Source of the DNA: a virus
Direction: 5' to 3' (one strand)
DNA: 26,989 nt
UHGV virus genome: UHGV-0205323
Part shown: positions 1,858 to 8,624 of the stretch, in pieces
Layout: every line of letters starts with the position of its first letter
Numbering within the stretch: position 1 is the stretch's first letter
Made by a program: the position numbers and the translations under genes
The notes under the pieces: model-generated
What the model saw: the letters and a program-made list of their open reading frames with translations, nothing else
Databases searched by the model: none
Told to the model about the DNA's origin: nothing

Positions 1858-1994
1858 CCATCAATCACCAGATACTTCGTGCTGCACAAAACAAAGCAGT
1901 AATAGCCAGATTTATTGGTGATTCAAAAATGTGGCTTGAAGCAAATAAAGCGATGAAATCAGCTATCAACCTTCCGTGGTATCGCAGGAAATGA
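1842..1994 (+). CDS. small ORF (50 aa), hypothetical
   Basis: GGAGG RBS upstream of ATG 1842; overlaps the end of the preceding small ORF; translated by hand. Confidence 0.35.
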   Translation: MRNEIAINHQILRAAQNKAVIARFIGDSKMWLEANKAMKSAINLPWYRRK

Positions 1995-2148
1995 GTTTTA
2001 CAGATAACTGGTCAGACGAAGAATTCATTCGTCAGATGAAAGAATTAATCGGTAACGAAGGAGATATTCATGTCACTTGCAACCACGGTGAAGGAGAGCA
2101 AGTTACAGAGACGCATGTACACGCAGAAAGCTCTCTGGTATCGCCATA
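1990..2148 (+). CDS. small ORF (52 aa), hypothetical acidic protein
   Basis: ATG 1990 overlaps the TGA stop of the preceding small ORF (ATGA coupling); translated by hand. Confidence 0.35.
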
Positions 2149-2248
2149 ATGGCGACCGCGAAGGAATGCGGGTATGCCTTAATTTGTCCAGAGTCGAAGT
2201 ATTAAACCAGCGTTATTTCCTTGGGCCGTGTCCATTCTGAGGTGAATT

Positions 2249-2956
2249 ATGGATTTGAACAAATTCGATGAGCCATTCAGCCCTGAAGATATCGAATGGC
2301 GAATACAGCAAAGCGGTAAAACACGCGATGGCAAGGTGTGGGCTATGGTGCTGGCTTATGTCACGAACAGGGCAATCATGAAACGCCTGGACGATGTTTG
2401 CGGCAAAGCAGGATGGCGCAATGAATACCGCGATATTCCCAACAACGGAGGCGTTGAATGCGGCATATCAATCAGGATTGATTCCGAATGGGTAACCAAA
2501 TGGGATGCTGCTGAAAACACGCAGGTAGAAGCCGTCAAAGGTGGTCGTTCAGGTGCAATGAAGCGTGCTGCCGTTCAGTGGGGAATCGGTCGGTATCTGT
2601 ATAACCTTGAGGAAGGTTTCGCACAAACATCTCTCGATAAAAAGCAGGGATGGCACAGGGCAAAACTCAAGGATGGAACAGGATTTTACTGGCTCCCTCC
2701 ATCGCTGCCGGGATGGGCAATCCCAGCATCAAATAACAAACCATCACCAGAAAATACCAACCAGAAATCTCCATCGGTTGACTGCGAGCAAATCCTGAAA
2801 GACTTCAGCGATTATGCGTCAACAGAAACTGACAAGAAAAAACTCATCGAGCGTTATCAGCGTGACTGGCAATTAATGGCTGGCAACGAGGAGGCGCAGG
2901 CTAAATGCGTTCAGGTAATGAACATCAGAGTTAACGAACTAAAACAGGCGGCATAA
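2249..2956 (+). CDS. Rad52-like single-strand annealing protein (recombinase)
   Basis: 235-aa ORF; N-terminal half has a Rad52/22-family-like pattern (GAMKRAAVQWGIGRYLY region); GAGGTGA RBS; immediately upstream of ssb. Confidence 0.7.
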   Translation: MDLNKFDEPFSPEDIEWRIQQSGKTRDGKVWAMVLAYVTNRAIMKRLDDVCGKAGWRNEYRDIPNNGGVECGISIRIDSEWVTKWDAAENTQVEAVKGGRSGAMKRAAVQWGIGRYLYNLEEGFAQTSLDKKQGWHRAKLKDGTGFYWLPPSLPGWAIPASNNKPSPENTNQKSPSVDCEQILKDFSDYASTETDKKKLIERYQRDWQLMAGNEEAQAKCVQVMNIRVNELKQAA

Positions 2957-3472
2957 ATGGCAAGCAGAGGCGTAAATAAGGTGATCATTATTGGTCGCCT
3001 TGGTCACGATCCAGAAATCAGATATTCACCATCAGGAACGGCATTTGCAAACCTTACCGTTGCTACGTCAGAACAATGGCGTGATAAGCAAACTGGAGAG
3101 CAAAAGGAGCAGACGGAGTGGCACCGTGTGGTAATGAGCGGGAAACTGGCAGAAATTGCCAGCGAATATCTGCGAAAAGGCTCTGAGGTTTATCTTGAAG
3201 GCAAATTGCGGACAAGAAAATGGCAGGATCAAAGCGGACAGGATCGGTTCACTACCGAAGTCATCGTGGGCGTTGGTGGAACCATGCAAATGCTTGGTGG
3301 CAAGCAAGGAGGCAATGAACAGTCCTCACCTCAGCGAAATAACGGTCAGCAACAAAGACAGCAACCTCAGCAGCAAGGGAATCACAGCGAACCACCTATG
3401 GATTTTGACGACGATATCCCCTTTGCACCAGTAACTCTCCCCTTCCCTCGTCACGCTATTCACGCAATTTAA
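2957..3472 (+). CDS. ssb: single-stranded DNA-binding protein
   Basis: Canonical SSB N-terminal OB-fold sequence ([16 protein letters not shown]...TEWHRVV), Gly/Gln-rich linker and acidic DDDIPF tail; start overlaps stop of upstream gene. Confidence 0.9.
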
Positions 3473-3480
3473 GGACTTAC

Positions 3481-4029
3481 ATGAATCACTTAATGGTTGA
3501 CCTTGAAACAATGGGCAATGGGCCATACGCGCCAGTTATTTCTATTGGGGCGGTATTCTTTGACCCGAATACCGGAGAAACAGGAGAAGAGTTCTCGGTA
3601 AATATCTCGCTTGAGTCATCAATGCGATATCGGGCGCGTCCTGACGCTTCAACGATTTTATGGTGGCTGGAACAGAGTGAAGAAGCCAGAAAATCGCTAA
3701 CCAGCAACACTCAGGAGCTTTCAACGGCTCTTTCATGGTTATCTGAATTCATCATAAAGAACGCTAACCACAAATTCGTTCAGGTTTGGGGGAATGGAGC
3801 ATCATTTGACTGCGTTATTCTCCGAAACAGTTATTCGCTGACAGGGCAGCCAGTTCCATGGCAGTGGTGGAATGACCGCGACGTAAGAACAATCGTCGAG
3901 CTTGGAAAGGTAATAGGATTCGAACCTAAGCGAGATATGCCATTCAAAGGAACTCGCCACAACGCTCTTGATGATGCCATTCACCAAGCCAAATACGTTT
4001 CAGCGATCTGGAAAAAGTTAGCTAAATAA
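3481..4029 (+). CDS. DEDDh-type 3'-5' exonuclease (DnaQ-like)
   Basis: Exo I motif MVDLETMG, Exo II WGNGASFD, Exo III HNALDDAIHQAKY in the correct order and spacing. Confidence 0.75.
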   Translation: MNHLMVDLETMGNGPYAPVISIGAVFFDPNTGETGEEFSVNISLESSMRYRARPDASTILWWLEQSEEARKSLTSNTQELSTALSWLSEFIIKNANHKFVQVWGNGASFDCVILRNSYSLTGQPVPWQWWNDRDVRTIVELGKVIGFEPKRDMPFKGTRHNALDDAIHQAKYVSAIWKKLAK

Positions 4030-4045
4030 TCAACAGGAGAAAACC

Positions 4046-4342
4046 ATGCCAGCGCCTCTGTATAGTGCGGATGACCCGCGCCGCTGTTCCGGCAATTCCG
4101 TATCGGAGGTGCTGGATAAATTCAGGAAAAACTACGACCGGATAATGTCGCTACCGCAGGAAACGAAAGAGGAAAAGGAATTTCGCCACTGTATATGGCT
4201 TGCAGAGAAAGAAGAACGCGAGCGAATTTACCAGACATCAATCCGACCATTCCGCAAAGCCACATATACCCACTTCCCTGAATATATCGACCCGCGCCTG
4301 CGTAATTACCGCTCACGCTATGGCGCTATCAGTAATGACTGA
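4046..4342 (+). CDS. hypothetical protein (98 aa)
   Basis: ORF with AGGAGA RBS upstream of ATG 4046; no domain recognised. Confidence 0.5.
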
Positions 4343-4514
4343 GGAATTTACCATGAGAGGACTTGCATACAATCCCGGCATTCTTCCGGCAGAAATGATT
4401 ATTCGCCAACGCGTAAAGCCAATGCCATCGAGAGATGGAATTGCTTAAGAGAAATTCTTTTCCGTCAGTGAATCAAAACAAATATCTGAATGCGATGTGG
4501 CGGAGTGGGAAAAA

Positions 4515-4868
4515 ATGAAACAAATGTCACTAATTGAGATGGATGGATTTCTGAAAGGTAAATGCATACCACGAGATTTAAAGGTTAACGAAACAAACGC
4601 TGAATATCTGGTGCGTAAATTCGATGAAGTACGTGCTGAGGCTCGCAACGAGGGTATTAACTATACCGCAAGCCGTCTTGCTGCTGCGTTCAATCACGGA
4701 TTTATCAATAAGTCTTTACGTGAAGTTTTCGACGTTACGCGCATGATTCTGTCAGCGAAAGAAGAGTTGGCTAATGAACCGCATCCGATTGATGGCCTGT
4801 CCGGTGAATATGCAGAGAAATCCCTTGAAGAATGGGCGGAACGGCTTCGCAAAGGAGGCAGCCAGTGA
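4515..4868 (+). CDS. hypothetical protein (117 aa from ATG 4515; track ORF starts at 4497)
   Basis: GGAG RBS upstream of ATG 4515; stop TGA overlaps the GTG start of the downstream methyltransferase ORF (GTGA). Confidence 0.5.
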   Translation: MKQMSLIEMDGFLKGKCIPRDLKVNETNAEYLVRKFDEVRAEARNEGINYTASRLAAAFNHGFINKSLREVFDVTRMILSAKEELANEPHPIDGLSGEYAEKSLEEWAERLRKGGSQ

Positions 4869-5350
4869 CTGGACATGCAGCAATCCTCGACATGTGCTGT
4901 GGCAGTCGCATGTTCTGGTTCGATAAGAATGACGACCGGGCGATATTTAGTGATATCAGAAAGGAAGAGCACACATTGTGTGATGGACGACGCCTGATTA
5001 TCAGTCCTGACCTGATAGCTGATTTTCGTGCACTACCATTTGCAGACGCATCCTTTTCGATGGTTGTATTCGACCCTCCGCATCTTGAGCGTGTTGGTGA
5101 TAACGCTTGGATGGGAAAGAAATATGGACGGCTGAATAAAGATACCTGGCGTGATGATTTACGGCAGGGATTCAAAGAAGCCTTTCGTGTGTTGTGGCCA
5201 TACGGCGTTCTGATTTTTAAATGGAATGAAACGCAAATACCTGTTCGCCAGATATTGGCACTGACCGACAGAAAGCCTGTTATCGGTCAACGAACAGGAA
5301 AGGGTGACAAGACCCACTGGATTATTTTTATGAAGGAGGGCAACCAGTGA
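4865..5350 (+). CDS. putative SAM-dependent DNA methyltransferase (orphan, small)
   Basis: Motif I-like DMCCGSR followed about 65 residues later by DPPH (motif IV-like, as DPPY/F/W in amino-methyltransferases); likely GTG start at 4865 overlapping the upstream stop; no adjacent restriction endonuclease candidate. Confidence 0.55.
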   Translation: MTGHAAILDMCCGSRMFWFDKNDDRAIFSDIRKEEHTLCDGRRLIISPDLIADFRALPFADASFSMVVFDPPHLERVGDNAWMGKKYGRLNKDTWRDDLRQGFKEAFRVLWPYGVLIFKWNETQIPVRQILALTDRKPVIGQRTGKGDKTHWIIFMKEGNQ

Positions 5351-6096
5351 GCGAGATTGATTATCAGGCACTGCGTGAGGTGGCGGAACGTGCAATTCCA
5401 GCAATGGAACGCCTGTTAATGTTGCCAGCTGATGATGACTTGTTAAGTGAACAGGAACTTAAAGATTACGGTGTGGATATTGATGCGCTCAACGCCTTCA
5501 AATTTCTGACCGGACCAGAAACCGTGCTGGCACTGCTGGATGAACGGGAAAGAAACCTGCAATACATCAAAAGCCGCGATCAGGAGAACGAGGATATTGC
5601 GCTAACGGTAGGGAAGCTGAGAGTTGAGCTTGAGGAAGTAAAACAACACGCTGAAGAATTATCCGAAACCAAGGCTGTTCGTAACCAATGGCGGCCAGAT
5701 ATTTGCCCAATAACCGGACGTGCATTTTTCATGTGGATTGAGCATCCAACATTGGGAAATGTGCCGACATATGGTGGCCCATTAGATAGTTACACCATTC
5801 CAACAAAGGACGGTGACGGTGAGTTTTCATGTGAGCGTTACGATCATGATTTTGGCGGTTGGGTAGAAAGCGAATGTCTTGGGTTATATCTGATTGATGA
5901 TAGAGAACAATGCAGGGTCTACGAACTGGAGGAACGCGTTAAGGAACTGGATGCTCGGGAAATATCGCTCCCAGAACGTAGCAGCATGCTTCATCGAACA
6001 GATTTTCACGATGATTACCAAACGGTAATGGCATACAAAGTTTCTGAAGTCATCGCTGCAATCCGCGCCGCTGGCATTCGCATCAAAGGAGAGTGA
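5347..6096 (+). CDS. Ead/Ea22-like prophage early protein (hypothetical)
   Basis: 249-aa ORF with coiled-coil-like N-terminus resembling proteins commonly annotated Ead/Ea22-like in enterobacterial prophages; GTG start overlapping upstream TGA; AGGAGG RBS. Confidence 0.5.
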   Translation: MSEIDYQALREVAERAIPAMERLLMLPADDDLLSEQELKDYGVDIDALNAFKFLTGPETVLALLDERERNLQYIKSRDQENEDIALTVGKLRVELEEVKQHAEELSETKAVRNQWRPDICPITGRAFFMWIEHPTLGNVPTYGGPLDSYTIPTKDGDGEFSCERYDHDFGGWVESECLGLYLIDDREQCRVYELEERVKELDAREISLPERSSMLHRTDFHDDYQTVMAYKVSEVIAAIRAAGIRIKGE

Positions 6097-6097
6097 T

Positions 6098-6604
6098 ATG
6101 AGCACTATCACTAAAGAACGTATCGAATTGTTCATTAAATCCCCGCTTGAAAACGGGCTTACCCGTGGTGAACAAATGGAACTGGCACGGATTGCGCTGG
6201 CATCGCTGGAAGCAGAGCCGGTGGCGTGGAAGGTAACCTTCACGCAAATTGACCGTGAATATAACACGTTCACTGGTATGTATTCTGACAAAGCAGAAGT
6301 CGAACGGTGGGTGCGGCTGCATAAAGCATGTAATTTTCGGGCAGATATAACACCGCTTTATACCGCCAAGCCAGTTCCGGTAACTCCGGATGGTTGGATA
6401 AGCTGTAGTGATCGAATGCCGGATACCAAAACAGCCGTTCTTGTTGCCGTGGAGTTTGACAGGAAAGGTGACTGGCGAATGAAATGGGCGACTTACATCC
6501 CGGGGCATCCTGACGCTAATGATGGGTGGATAATTCCTGGTGCGTCGTGGAAACCGTCACACTGGATGCCGCTACCGGAACCGCCGGAGCAGGATGGTGA
6601 ATGA
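6098..6604 (+). CDS. DUF551-domain protein
   Basis: C-terminal region with the typical DUF551 pattern (DGWISCSDRMPD...VLVAV...HWMPLPEPP); GGAGAG RBS. Confidence 0.65.
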   Translation: MSTITKERIELFIKSPLENGLTRGEQMELARIALASLEAEPVAWKVTFTQIDREYNTFTGMYSDKAEVERWVRLHKACNFRADITPLYTAKPVPVTPDGWISCSDRMPDTKTAVLVAVEFDRKGDWRMKWATYIPGHPDANDGWIIPGASWKPSHWMPLPEPPEQDGE

Positions 6605-7016: not shown

Positions 7017-7217
7017 ATGCAACACGAACTACAGCCTGATTCACTGGTTGATTTGAAATTCATCATGGCCGATACTGGCTTCGGTAAAACCTTCATCTAC
7101 GACCGGATTAAGTCCGGCGACCTGCCAAAAGCCAAAGTTATCCACGGGCGAGCAAGATGGTTATATCGTGACCATTGTGAATTCAAAAATAAGCTCTTAA
7201 GCCGCGCCAATGGGTAA
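7017..7217 (+). CDS. xis: excisionase-like DNA-binding protein (HTH_17/AlpA-type)
   Basis: 66-aa ORF immediately upstream of the integrase; pattern ...DRIKSGDLPKAKVIHGRARWLYRD... resembles the excisionase/AlpA winged-helix family. Confidence 0.6.
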   Translation: MQHELQPDSLVDLKFIMADTGFGKTFIYDRIKSGDLPKAKVIHGRARWLYRDHCEFKNKLLSRANG

Positions 7218-7466
7218 AATAGCGGGTAAAATATTTTTCACATCTAAAAAACACCATTCTAATCAATCCCCTGCTGCGTCAAGTAGATGTCTGCAGGGGA
7301 CACCATTTATCAGTTCGCTCCCATCCGTACCAGTCCGCAAAATCCCCTGAATATCAAGCCTTCCGTAGATTCACAGTTCGTAATGGTTCGCGTCAGATCG
7401 TTGACAGCCGCACACCATGACGGGTAAAAAGTGGATAAAATAATTTTACCCACCGGATTTTTACCC
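7212..7466. repeat. cluster of GGGTAAAAW 9-mers in both orientations spanning the xis stop to the int start; candidate Int/Xis binding sites or attP arm sites
   Basis: GGGTAAAAT at 7212-7220 and 7224-7232; GGGTAAAAA 7422-7430; GGATAAAAT 7433-7441; inverted ATTTTACCC 7443-7451 and TTTTTACCC 7458-7466; an 8-bp inverted repeat TCCCCTGC/GCAGGGGA at 7267-7274 and 7293-7300 lies between the two groups. Confidence 0.55.
7401..7430 (+). promoter_or_regulatory. candidate int promoter overlapped by the GGGTAAAAW repeats
   Basis: Consensus -35 TTGACA at 7401-7406; weak -10 TAAAAA at 7425-7430 (18-bp spacer); no experimental support. Confidence 0.3.
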
Positions 7467-8624
7467 ATGCTCACTGTTAAGCAGATTGAAGCAGCAAAGC
7501 CGAAAGAAAAACCATACCGCCTTCTCGATGGTAATGGCCTGTACCTTTATGTCCCTGTATCAGGGAAAAAGGTATGGCAGCTTCGCTACAAGATTGACGG
7601 TAAGGAGAAAATCCTGACCGTCGGAAAATATCCGCTTATGACTTTGCAGGAGGCAAGGGATAAGGCATGGACTGCGAGGAAAGACATCTCGGCTGGCATC
7701 GATCCGGTAAAGGCGAAAAAGGCTTCGTCTAACAACAATTCCTTTTGTGCGATTTACAAGGAATGGTACGAGCACAAGAAGCAAGTCTGGTCAGTAGGCT
7801 ATGCAACTGAACTTGCCAAAATGTTTGATGACGACATTTTACCCATCATCGGCGGTCTTGAGATTCAGGATATTGAGCCGATGCAACTGTTGGAAGTAAT
7901 CCGCAGATTTGAAGATCGCGGTGCAATGGAGCGAGCCAACAAAGCACGCAGAAGATGCGGCGAGGTTTTCCGTTACGCTATTGTCACCGGAAGGGCTAAA
8001 TATAACCCGGCACCTGACCTTGCTGACGCCATGAAGGGATACCGCAAGAAGAACTTCCCGTTTCTTCCTGCAGACCAGATCCCGGCATTCAACAAAGCAC
8101 TGGCAACATTTTCAGGAAGTATCGTATCGCTCATTGCGACCAAAGTTTTACGCTACACAGCCCTAAGAACGAAAGAGCTTCGTTCCATGCAATGGAAGAA
8201 CGTCGATTTTGAAAACAGGATTATCACTATCGACGCCAGTGTGATGAAGGGACGCAAAATTCATGTGGTTCCGATGTCGGGCCAGGTAGTTGAACTTCTC
8301 ACTACGCTAAGCTCCATCACTAAACCAGTATCAGAGTTTGTTTTTGCCGGGCGCAACGATAAGAAGAAGCCAATCTGCGAGAACGCGGTATTGCTTGTGA
8401 TCAAACAAATCGGCTATGAGGGTCTGGAAAGCGGTCACGGATTCAGGCATGAATTCAGCACAATTATGAACGAGCACGAATGGCCTGCTGATGCTATTGA
8501 AGTGCAACTGGCACATGCCAACGGCGGATCTGTACGCGGGATTTACAACCATGCTCAGTATCTGGATAAGCGCAGAGAAATGATGCAGTGGTGGGCGGAT
8601 TGGCTTGATGAAAAGGTGGAGTGA
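7467..8624 (+). CDS. int: tyrosine integrase, P4-type (DUF4102 N-terminal domain)
   Basis: N-terminus MLTVKQIEAAKPKEKPYRLLDGNGLYLYV...WQLRY typical of P4/CP4-57-like integrases; C-terminal catalytic region with HGFRH and conserved R/H/Y context; start placed at ATG 7467 rather than the track's 7431. Confidence 0.85.
   Translation: MLTVKQIEAAKPKEKPYRLLDGNGLYLYVPVSGKKVWQLRYKIDGKEKILTVGKYPLMTLQEARDKAWTARKDISAGIDPVKAKKASSNNNSFCAIYKEWYEHKKQVWSVGYATELAKMFDDDILPIIGGLEIQDIEPMQLLEVIRRFEDRGAMERANKARRRCGEVFRYAIVTGRAKYNPAPDLADAMKGYRKKNFPFLPADQIPAFNKALATFSGSIVSLIATKVLRYTALRTKELRSMQWKNVDFENRIITIDASVMKGRKIHVVPMSGQVVELLTTLSSITKPVSEFVFAGRNDKKKPICENAVLLVIKQIGYEGLESGHGFRHEFSTIMNEHEWPADAIEVQLAHANGGSVRGIYNHAQYLDKRREMMQWWADWLDEKVE

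Follow-up and report, generated by a model that had tools for sequence, protein, structure and literature searches.

Gene Organization of the Recombination Module

The window, that is, the whole 26,989-nt stretch of viral DNA that was analysed (UHGV virus genome UHGV-0205323), carries an early-left operon in which the gene order is cIII, kil, two small ORFs, annealase, SSB, exonuclease, and abc2. The operon is N-antiterminated, and its context comprises an N-like protein (114-413) together with cIII, kil, xis, and int. The original prediction of three ORFs in tight succession was borne out: the annealase (235 aa), SSB (171 aa), and exonuclease (182 aa) genes all lie on the + strand and are separated by 0 nt and then 8 nt, while 16 nt separate the exonuclease gene from abc2, so that the intergenic spacers across the block are 0–16 nt. 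No internal promoter-like site was seen across the block. The features of the region are as follows.

1976..2149, + strand: small ORF of 57 aa in the slot of P22 arf (phrog_2123, E = 8e-41)
2070..2240, + strand: small overlapping ORF of 56 aa, Sf6 gp29 / HK97 gp42 type (phrog_1723, E = 9e-36; Sf6 and mEp235 annotations)
2249-2956, + strand: Rad52/22-family annealase, whole ORF, 235 aa (PF04098)
2249..2629, + strand: N-terminal Rad52/22-type ssDNA-annealing core of the annealase, residues 1-127 (PF04098, AF2, Foldseek)
2396..2428, no strand assigned: protospacer of 33 nt
2630..2725, + strand: W/P-rich conserved beta-hairpin segment of the annealase, residues 128-159 (homologue alignment, model)
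2726..2779, + strand: disordered hypervariable linker of the annealase, residues 160-177 (indel-rich unconserved columns; pLDDT)
2780..2956, + strand: P22-Erf-type three-helix domain of the annealase, residues 178-235 and stop (AF2, BLASTP)
2957-3472, + strand: SSB, whole ORF, 171 aa (PF00436, TIGR00621)
2957..3400, + strand: OB-fold core and Q/P-rich linker of the SSB, residues 1-148 (PF00436, TIGR00621)
3401..3424, + strand: acidic SSB tip DFDDDIPF, residues 149-156, internal (sequence; the SSB family profiles end at F156)
3425..3472, + strand: 15-residue SSB extension and stop; 3' junction of the HNH insertion in Sf6 and Bas106
3481..4029, + strand: predicted DEDDh 3'-5' exonuclease, Rv2179c-like / T4 DexA family, 182 aa, optional cassette (PF16473)
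4046..4342, + strand: abc2, predicted anti-RecBCD (RecC-binding) protein, fourth gene of the module (PF11043, phrog_656)

The 57-aa ORF is a homologue of HK022 gp42, going by the mEp235 annotation, and had no match in Pfam. A nearby DUF2737 ORF is truncated, with 31 aa compared with about 55 aa in relatives.

A Rad52-Type Core and an Erf-Type Tail in the Annealase

The annealase, SSB, and DEDDh exonuclease assignments were each upheld by profile searches far above the curated cut-offs (PF04098, PF00436, and PF16473, respectively). For the 235-aa protein, the search returned the annealase family Rad52_Rad22 (PF04098; residues 4-136, E = 7e-26, 91.4 bits, cut-off 20.3) and not a non-annealase family. 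The AF2 model of the protein had a pLDDT of 83, with about 90 for the core, and contains the fold of the Rad52 N-terminal domain (beta-beta-beta-alpha core). The top Foldseek matches of this model were yeast Mgm101 (9yi9) and human RAD52 (8bjm, 8rjw, and 1h2i), with probabilities of 0.99–1.0 and E values of about 4e-4. Profile and predicted fold thus identify the protein as a putative single-strand annealing protein of the Rad52/Rad22 (Sak) type. The core is followed by a segment in which the model places strands at residues 126-149 and in which W148, P151, L153, P154, W156, A157, and P159 are invariant among 34 homologues. A WW-domain reading of residues 129-163 was rejected, as the Prp40 match (E = 0.2) was not significant.

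The suggestion that the C-terminus of the annealase, with the peptide ETDKKKLIERYQRDWQL, may be a separate domain was also supported. The quoted peptide is present; residues 160-177 form a disordered linker (pLDDT below 50 at residues 162-175), and residues 179-234 were modelled by AF2, as a domain, as a three-helix bundle with a pLDDT of 95.8. When the annealase was compared with P22 Erf by BLASTP, only residues 157-235 aligned, with Erf residues 134-205 (63% identity, E = 1e-30), and no similarity was detected by BLASTP in the N-terminal part. A profile search for the ERF core (PF04404) gave no match in the annealase. The "Erf-like" labels that the protein carries in databases are therefore due to the shared C-terminal domain only. 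The annealase is thus chimeric, with an Erf tail joined to a Rad52 core. The three-helix domain is portable, as it occurs on ERF, RecT, and Rad52 cores, and it appears to be an adaptor common to P22 Erf and some RecT proteins.

The relationships of this domain were examined further by profile and structure searches. No consistent match was found in Pfam, the domain profile gave only marginal single-helix colicin matches among PDB sequences (E = 0.006 or weaker), and the best Foldseek match to a model of the domain alone had an E of 1.8. Kinship with the C-terminal domain of Redbeta, with lambda Orf, or with any Pfam family was thus rejected, and the domain is a family-specific three-helix bundle. 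A common phage-encoded partner was also sought, and none of the candidates (Abc2, Abc1, SSB, or exonuclease) was present with all carriers of the domain. Since no phage protein is common to all carriers, the partner is most probably encoded by the host, although the absence of a common phage gene points only weakly to a host factor. If the C-terminal domain of Redbeta is taken as a guide, the tail of the host SSB would be the obvious choice. A host-encoded partner, if this is the case, bears on moving the annealase to other hosts.

An Extended C-Terminal Tail in the SSB

The SSB matched PF00436 (E = 2e-38, 131 bits, cut-off 26) and TIGR00621 (E = 1.6e-54, 184.7 bits against a cut-off of 53.95). 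Partners of the host SSB need a free terminal Phe carboxylate. The phage SSB does not end in a free C-terminal Phe tip, as DDDIPF is followed by 15 further residues. The last 45 nt of ssb (window 3428-3472) are identical in eight phages, and the extended tail has the motif IPF-AP[VI][GT]L...[IM][HY]xI-COOH. This peptide motif is conserved in proteins of Vibrio, Providencia, Klebsiella, Proteus, and Tatumella, in addition to the Escherichia phage SSBs. It was also observed on a 406-aa Klebsiella phage protein that has no SSB annotation. When a profile of the SSB tail was searched against a set of 5.8 billion proteins, only short fragments were returned, seemingly because the search matches candidates on length; the fragments provide variants of the motif and not a census.

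The 45-nt identity was first regarded as a frozen mosaic boundary or a homing co-conversion tract that has no function at the peptide level. This idea was revised because divergent phages keep the motif with different codons and residues. In Sf6 and Bas106, an HNH gene is inserted precisely at the SSB tail, and the HNH ORF ends in frame with the same peptide. Homogenization driven by homing may be the source of the 100% DNA identity of the 45-nt end among enteric phages; if so, cleavage would be expected near GATTTTGACGACGATATCCCCTTTGCA in the HNH-minus allele of the ssb tail, together with super-Mendelian inheritance of the HNH gene.

A speculative and rather improbable extension of these results is that the 15 residues represent a type of phage SSB tail not described before, which re-routes the SSB to partners chosen by the phage and makes the module a private docking system. 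In that case, the extension would bury the terminal Phe carboxylate, add a second hydrophobic motif, and divert the SSB from the host SSB-interacting proteins, and the SSB tail and the portable Erf-type domain of the annealase would together constitute a docking system made from shuffled adaptor pieces. Because the tip is masked by 15 residues, the model of HK620 and lambda, in which the annealase binds the C-terminal tip of SSB, may not transfer to this module. The masked tip also matters for constructs built with or without the extension.

An Optional DEDDh Exonuclease

The third protein of the block matched the Rv2179c-like family PF16473 (E = 3.5e-73, 245.5 bits, cut-off 27) and T4 DexA (PDB 8kel, E = 1e-13). 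Its putative catalytic residues D7, E9, D110, H160, and D165 aligned with D7, E9, D119, H186, and D191 of T4 DexA, a list of residues taken from PMC12153337. By profile and these five residues, the protein is assigned to the DEDDh / DnaQ-like exonucleases, Rv2179c-like subfamily, and 3'-5' activity is predicted. W130 is the equivalent of DexA W152, the equivalent of D90 is missing (A83 or a gap), and D169 aligns to F147/E148. D90 of DexA has been tied to tetramer formation, and EcD, an E. coli homologue of DexA that degrades T4 DNA and confers protection from T4, has no equivalent Asp (PMC12153337). The features looked for in HREX enzymes, which are DexA-type defense exonucleases that recognize 5hmC, were counterparts of W152 and D169 together with the lack of one for D90.

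The exonuclease is missing from the modules of HK75, CP-1639, and Sf6. In HK75 and CP-1639, the SSB gene is followed directly by abc2, while the slot is occupied by an HNH gene in Sf6, and Bas106 carries the nuclease as well as the HNH gene. Among 5426 complete E. coli genomes, the annealase (at least 95% identity) was found in 392, the exonuclease in 152, and the four-gene block in 140, and about 64% of the annealase-bearing E. coli prophages do not carry the exonuclease. The same nuclease domain forms the C-terminus of an 823-aa protein adjoining xis/int in UTI89, and diverged paralogues occur in 76% of the E. coli genomes. In Vibrio phage 1.106.O, the gene right after an extended-tail SSB encodes a 48%-identical exonuclease, and no annealase adjoins the pair. 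These results indicate that the exonuclease is accessory and exchangeable, a cassette that the annealase does not require as a partner. The original prediction had called its 3'-5' polarity unusual for such a module, which is a fair remark; however, the same point had already been published (PMC12315714), and the nuclease is optional.

[quoted passage not shown] The exonuclease is, however, not EcD itself: the EcD primers in the supplement of PMC12153337 give the termini MIDTET / TIPETYD, and EcD is thus a different member of the family. Further, D169 has no clear counterpart, and the sole match of the exonuclease in PADLOC was a weak one to a generic cas-associated DEDDh model (E = 2e-4). The gene also lies in the middle of the operon with no promoter of its own, and it should therefore be silent in a repressed lysogen, which argues against a conflict enzyme.

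The tight packing of the exonuclease gene, with spacers of 8 and 16 nt and no internal promoter, favors another reading, in which the exonuclease is a genuine recombination component that acts with the annealase and SSB and might trim non-homologous 3' flaps after annealing or process SSB-coated 3' ends. The block would then be a real machine of four parts, as the original prediction had implied. The DnaQ-type gene of epsilon34 was judged "very likely" a legitimate member of the Rec module by the authors of PMC12315714 because it is tightly packed, and the conservation of the SSB-exonuclease pair in the distant Vibrio phage could mean joint work with the SSB. We consider this role doubtful. 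The nuclease is present in only 140–152 of the 392 E. coli genomes that bear the annealase, its slot is empty or filled by other genes in related modules, its domain is found elsewhere, and the Vibrio pair has no annealase beside it. Moreover, annealases use 3' tails, which a nuclease of 3'-5' polarity would destroy, and recombination is as a rule inhibited by exonucleases of this polarity (PMC12315714).

Abc2 and the Proposed Mechanism

The fourth protein of the module matched PF11043 over its entire length (residues 1-98/98, E = 3e-61, 203.9 bits, cut-off 25) and phrog_656 (E = 4e-56). The block had originally been described as a substitute for a P22-type set of Erf and Abc anti-RecBCD functions. 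This description was not supported, as Abc2, which the original prediction had overlooked, lies directly downstream and the C-terminal domain of Erf is kept; only the annealing core of Erf and Abc1 are therefore replaced.

We propose that a P22-like E. coli prophage of the IntS type has its homologous-recombination (Rec) module in this region and that the module operates by the following mechanism, a reading to which we assign a probability of about 75%. Abc2 would bind RecC, and host RecBCD would thereby become a resection machine that acts independently of Chi and leaves 3' ssDNA, an action that is established for P22 Abc2 and is suggested here by the strong PF11043 match. The phage SSB, as its family membership suggests, would coat the resected 3' ssDNA. 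The annealase, judged by its fold and family, would oligomerize on ssDNA and anneal the complementary strand, and the annealing would circularize the terminally redundant genome and feed recombination-dependent replication. The linker-tethered Erf-type domain may dock the annealase onto its partner, and the exonuclease, as an accessory cassette, would not be the partner that carries out resection. That the block is instead a functionless, decaying remnant in a defective prophage is highly improbable: the DUF2737 neighbor is truncated and some E. coli copies are broken by IS elements or deletions, but all four ORFs are full length and intact, they share 91–100% identity with genes of plaque-forming phages, and the annealase, SSB, and exonuclease each belong to a 90%-identity cluster with more than 1000 member sequences.

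Relation to Known Recombination Modules

The four-gene block is annotated in phages epsilon34, g341c, mEp235, and mEpX2, with the same order and types of genes (Rad52/22 SAP, extended-tail SSB-1, DnaQ-type exonuclease, and Abc2) and 86–92% nucleotide identity to the block. Nothing substantive differs between these modules and that of the window, which is an E. coli prophage copy. In its core, the SSB of the window corresponds to the allele of Sf6, with 98% identity, whereas identity to the mEp235/HK75 allele is 73%. The module of P22 (arf, erf, abc1, and abc2) occupies the same early-left position after cIII and kil and has the same Abc2, and its Erf carries a C-terminal domain that is homologous to that of the annealase (63–72% identical). 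In contrast, the core in P22 is ERF (PF04404) whereas that in the window is Rad52/22 (PF04098), Abc1 of P22 is replaced by the SSB and exonuclease, and Arf is replaced by the two unrelated small ORFs.

The logic of lambda Red (Gam, Bet, and Exo) is similar, in that RecBCD is neutralized or redirected, ssDNA is produced, and the ssDNA is annealed. The nuclease of the window is optional and is a predicted 3'-5' enzyme of the DEDDh type, whereas lambda Exo degrades DNA in the 5'-3' direction and is an obligate partner. [quoted passage not shown] T4 DexA and EcD (HREX) share the DEDDh fold family and the catalytic residues with the exonuclease, which is about 45 residues shorter than T4 DexA.

HK620 (hkaM, sak4, ssb, and abc2) resembles the window in having an annealase, its own SSB, and then Abc2, and it is the only module with an annealase, SSB, and Abc2 in this group of phages that has been tested experimentally. 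The mechanism of P22 Abc2 and the HK620 module with sak4-ssb-abc2 have been described, and the six C-terminal residues of the HK620 SSB stimulate annealing and recombineering (PMC5928155). The two modules differ in that HK620 Sak4 is a RecA/Rad51-like ATPase whereas the annealase of the window has a predicted Rad52 fold; the HK620 SSB, which is not homologous to bacterial SSB (PMC12315714), ends in a free NDYPPF tip, and HK620 has no exonuclease. By analogy with HK620 Sak4-SSB, the annealase and SSB of the window may be a reasonable candidate pair for recombineering.

The gene arrangement has already been catalogued, and the module is a further copy of a type that many prophages of E. coli and Salmonella carry. 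The catalogue of lambdoid Rec modules (Genome Res 2025, PMC12315714) includes "DnaQ-like 3'-5' nucleases", names the DnaQ-type nuclease of epsilon34, and defines an "ES18 functional class" by the presence of an anti-RecBCD protein, SSB, nuclease, and SAP, all of which are found in the window; the modules of epsilon34, g341c, mEp235, and mEpX2 are of this class. According to the same paper, the SSBs of Sf6 and ES18 have so far not been studied experimentally, and a literature search for activity tests of the remaining module proteins found none. The Erf-type C-terminal domain common to several annealase families and the conserved extension of the SSB tail seem to be undescribed so far. H95, which apparently carries exo-abc2 with a different upstream gene, was rejected as a deletion remnant only. 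Finally, the 33-nt protospacer within the annealase core is a perfect match to a CRISPR-array spacer of E. coli JNE151685, in which a CRISPR direct_repeat feature is annotated.

Gene content of the recombination block

Three back-to-back ORFs on the + strand, as originally predicted, were confirmed by their positions and by profile searches, in which all three scores (PF04098, PF00436, and PF16473) greatly exceeded the curated thresholds.

2249-2956, +, annealase of the Rad52/22 type, 235 aa; residues 4-136 match Rad52_Rad22 (PF04098, E=7e-26)
2957-3472, +, SSB, 171 aa, its ATG immediately after the annealase TAA (PF00436, E=2e-38)
3481-4029, +, DEDDh 3'-5' exonuclease, 182 aa, after an 8-nt spacer behind ssb (Rv2179c-like 3'-5' exonuclease, PF16473, E=3.5e-73)

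The profile search on the 235-aa protein, proposed earlier as a Rad52-like annealase, returned an annealase family. Judged by its neighbouring genes, the block lies in the early-left (PL-type) operon of a P22-like E. coli prophage of the IntS type.

114-413, N-like antiterminator
410-1048, Nmad5 (nucleotide-modification-associated domain 5; PF18757, E=6e-71)
1723-1857, cIII
1842-1994, kil
1976-2149, small ORF (phrog_2123), overlapping the next
2070-2240, small ORF (phrog_1723), overlapping the preceding one
4046-4342, abc2, full-length match to PF11043 (E=3e-61)
4353-4448, truncated DUF2737 ORF downstream of abc2 (31 aa against ~55 aa in relatives)
4832-5350, DNA methyltransferase
5347-6096, Ead/Ea22
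6098-6604, DUF551
7017-7217, xis-like
7431-8624, integrase

On the earlier reading, the block replaced both P22-type Erf and the Abc anti-RecBCD functions; because abc2 gives a full-length match, this is wrong for Abc2. No promoter-like site was found within the block, and the sole + strand terminator-like site was at 1671-1690, upstream of cIII. The truncated DUF2737 ORF and the ORF after it (4497-4868), with its matches to parts of PHROGs 614, 583, and 368, suggest a recombination scar in this stretch of the operon. The two small overlapping ORFs (HK022 gp42, HK97 gp42, and Sf6 gp29-30 types) fill the slot of P22 arf; they carry a PHROG-based label of 'recombinase', yet no evidence for any function of theirs was found. 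The Nmad5 gene stands alone directly behind the N-like gene, and no other component of a modification system was recognised near it except the DNA methyltransferase.

The gene arrangement is common, catalogued, and previously known. Megablast recovered the 2.4-kb block in full, at 86-92% identity, from phages mEp235, mEpX2, epsilon34, g341c, and NM-3, where the annealase is annotated as Rad52/22 or "Erf-like" and its neighbours as SSB, exonuclease, and Abc2; E. coli chromosomes in RefSeq carry annotations for these four genes as well. The 90%-identity cluster of each of the three proteins holds >1000 member sequences from E. coli and Salmonella. In 2025, a survey covering 325 lambdoid phages defined the Rec module as a combination of strand-annealing protein, SSB, nuclease, and anti-RecBCD, listed the DnaQ gene of epsilon34 as a likely member, and counted all four functions in 25 phages and the nuclease-free HK75 type in 27 (PMC12315714). 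According to that survey, the SSBs of Sf6 and ES18 are without experimental study. Functional tests of the module's other proteins were not found in the literature. A CRISPR array beside queE in E. coli JNE151685 contains a 33-nt perfect match (L010:1501-1533) to the annealase gene (window 2396-2428); CRISPR adaptation in E. coli has therefore sampled this phage group.

The annealase carries the C-terminal domain of Erf

When 34 homologues (57-98% identity) were aligned, the annealase fell into a conserved core (residues 1-127), a W/P-rich segment that is also conserved (residues 134-159), a hypervariable, indel-rich linker (residues 160-177), and a conserved C-terminal block of ~55 residues. 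AlphaFold2 predicted a Rad52-type fold, a disordered linker (pLDDT below 50), and a three-helix bundle at residues 179-234 (pLDDT 95.8 when modelled alone). The core grouped with yeast Mgm101 and human RAD52 in Foldseek (probability 1.0). The W/P-rich segment, taken here as residues 128-159 (window 2630-2725), with the pattern GW.RAK.KDGT.FYW.PP.LP.WA.P and seven residues invariant in the 34 homologues, was modelled as beta-hairpins; its WW-domain-like match to Prp40 was non-significant (E=0.2).

Neither the PDB nor Pfam yielded a specific relative of the bundle, by structure or by sequence, and the bundle does not match the C-terminal domain of Redbeta. Among 1.84 billion proteins, its profile found only 48 cluster representatives, C-terminal in every case, and the full-length carriers checked had ERF cores (n=6), RecT cores (n=2), or a Rad52/22 core. 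P22 Erf has the same domain: tblastn gave 72% identity under the erf gene, and BLASTP aligned only annealase residues 157-235 with Erf residues 134-205 (63% identity, E=1e-30) and detected no similarity between the two cores. The annealase is chimeric, and the domain it has in common with Erf accounts for its old labels, "similar to P22 Erf" and "Erf-like", although its annealing domain is Rad52/22. Compared with P22, the Erf core and Abc1 have been exchanged, whereas the Erf C-terminal domain and Abc2 have been kept. Poteete, Sauer and Hendrix reportedly found in 1983 that the Erf C-terminal domain is separable by protease.

The original prediction is thus partly supported: the family assignments hold, and the alignment, the AlphaFold2 models, and the occurrence on ERF and RecT cores give good support to a separate C-terminal domain, while Abc2 is present and the C-terminal domain of Erf has been kept.

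We infer that this domain binds another protein. No phage-encoded partner common to all carriers emerged from four neighbourhoods: P22 has Abc1 and Abc2 and no SSB, Klebsiella RCIP0098 only an Abc1-like protein (neither Abc2 nor SSB), Erwinia EhrS_49 none of the three, and Morganella IME1369_01 SSB without Abc1 or Abc2. The most economical candidate is a host factor, which could, by analogy with Redbeta, be the host SSB tail; the Redbeta C-terminal domain binds E. coli SSB (PMC11611040).

The exonuclease is an exchangeable extra

The exonuclease has the DEDDh residues D7, E9, D110, H160, and D165, and the best match among relatives of known structure is T4 DexA (8kel/8ken, E about 1e-13). The slot between ssb and abc2 was compared among close relatives.

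Content of the ssb-abc2 slot in close relatives with annealases 98-100% identical
HK75 and CP-1639: empty
Sf6: HNH endonuclease
Bas106: HNH endonuclease and exonuclease
S135 and 103203_sal5: a different endonuclease-like gene
mEp235, epsilon34, and the window: exonuclease alone

Among 5426 complete E. coli genomes, the annealase gene (at least 95% identity) was present in 392, the window-type exonuclease in 152, and the contiguous four-gene block in 140; diverged exonuclease paralogues occurred in 4121 (76%). In a UTI89 prophage near ompW (L012:1203-3674), which is of a different lambdoid type, a gene adjoining xis/int encodes an 823-aa 'exonuclease'; its C-terminal domain is the most common relative of the window exonuclease in E. 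coli.

P22-type recombination runs without a phage nuclease, which is unnecessary because Abc2-modified RecBCD performs the resection (PMC5928155); the 3'-5' exonuclease is therefore best read as accessory. In mechanism, the module most likely resembles the P22 and HK620 systems: Abc2-RecBCD would resect, SSB would coat the DNA, and the Rad52-type protein would anneal it, with the nuclease as an exchangeable extra beside these steps. Two roles are plausible for it. It may process 3' ends or flaps on SSB-coated DNA; in Vibrio phage 1.106.O, a 48%-identical nuclease directly follows an extended-tail SSB, with no annealase nearby. It may also have an activity of the DexA/HREX type against modified phage DNA. 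EcD, an E. coli DexA homologue, protects against T4 (PMC12153337); the window exonuclease is not the same protein. Relative to DexA, it keeps the equivalent of W152 and lacks that of D90, and the D169 equivalent is unclear.

An extended SSB tail

SSB family profiles stop at F156, and the window SSB continues beyond the canonical DDDIPF tip for another 15 residues.

3401-3472, +, SSB tip and extension (SSB residues 149-171)

The 45 nt encoding most of the extension and the stop (window 3428-3472) were 100% identical in eight phages, whose ssb cores fall to 73% identity. The peptide, IPF-AP[VI][GT]L...[IM][HY]xI, is kept in phage proteins of Escherichia, Klebsiella, Proteus/Providencia, Tatumella, and Vibrio (comparison loci L013:2033-2590, L014:2015-2590, L015:2153-2581, and L016:364-1584). 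After IPF, the Vibrio versions read APVGLQFGKKFMHVI and APIGLMHNNNLMHCI, the Providencia/Proteus version, on a very different OB core, APIGLPYPRHAIYVI, the Tatumella version APIGLQHPTHFIYSI, and that of a 406-aa Klebsiella phage protein APIGLPYGRNFIHCI. Given these divergent versions, the extension is not merely frozen DNA. A second type of extension reads LGxGYGVCRxAxYxIS after IPF. Host SSB partners are said, by Lu and Keck in 2008 and by Shereda et al. in 2008, to bind the terminal Phe and its free carboxylate, and the extension should therefore change partner choice, as we hypothesize. No strict correlation of the extension with the exonuclease or with the type of annealase C-terminal domain was seen, and a full-text literature search for the string IPFAP returned nothing relevant. 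Two modest leads, both seemingly undescribed, may be worth a targeted experiment: the portable adaptor domain of the Erf type and the extended tail of the SSB.

In Sf6 (gp26, L002:4431-4920) and Bas106 (L003:4199-4688), the HNH gene sits exactly in the tail-coding region of ssb, corresponding to window 3401-3472. The cassette provides a recoded SSB tail, MNFDDSDIPF-stop, and the HNH ORF continues in frame into the old 15-residue extension, an arrangement that looks like a homing-endonuclease insertion. Phage phiKp_30 (L006:2910-3106) holds a decayed remnant of it.
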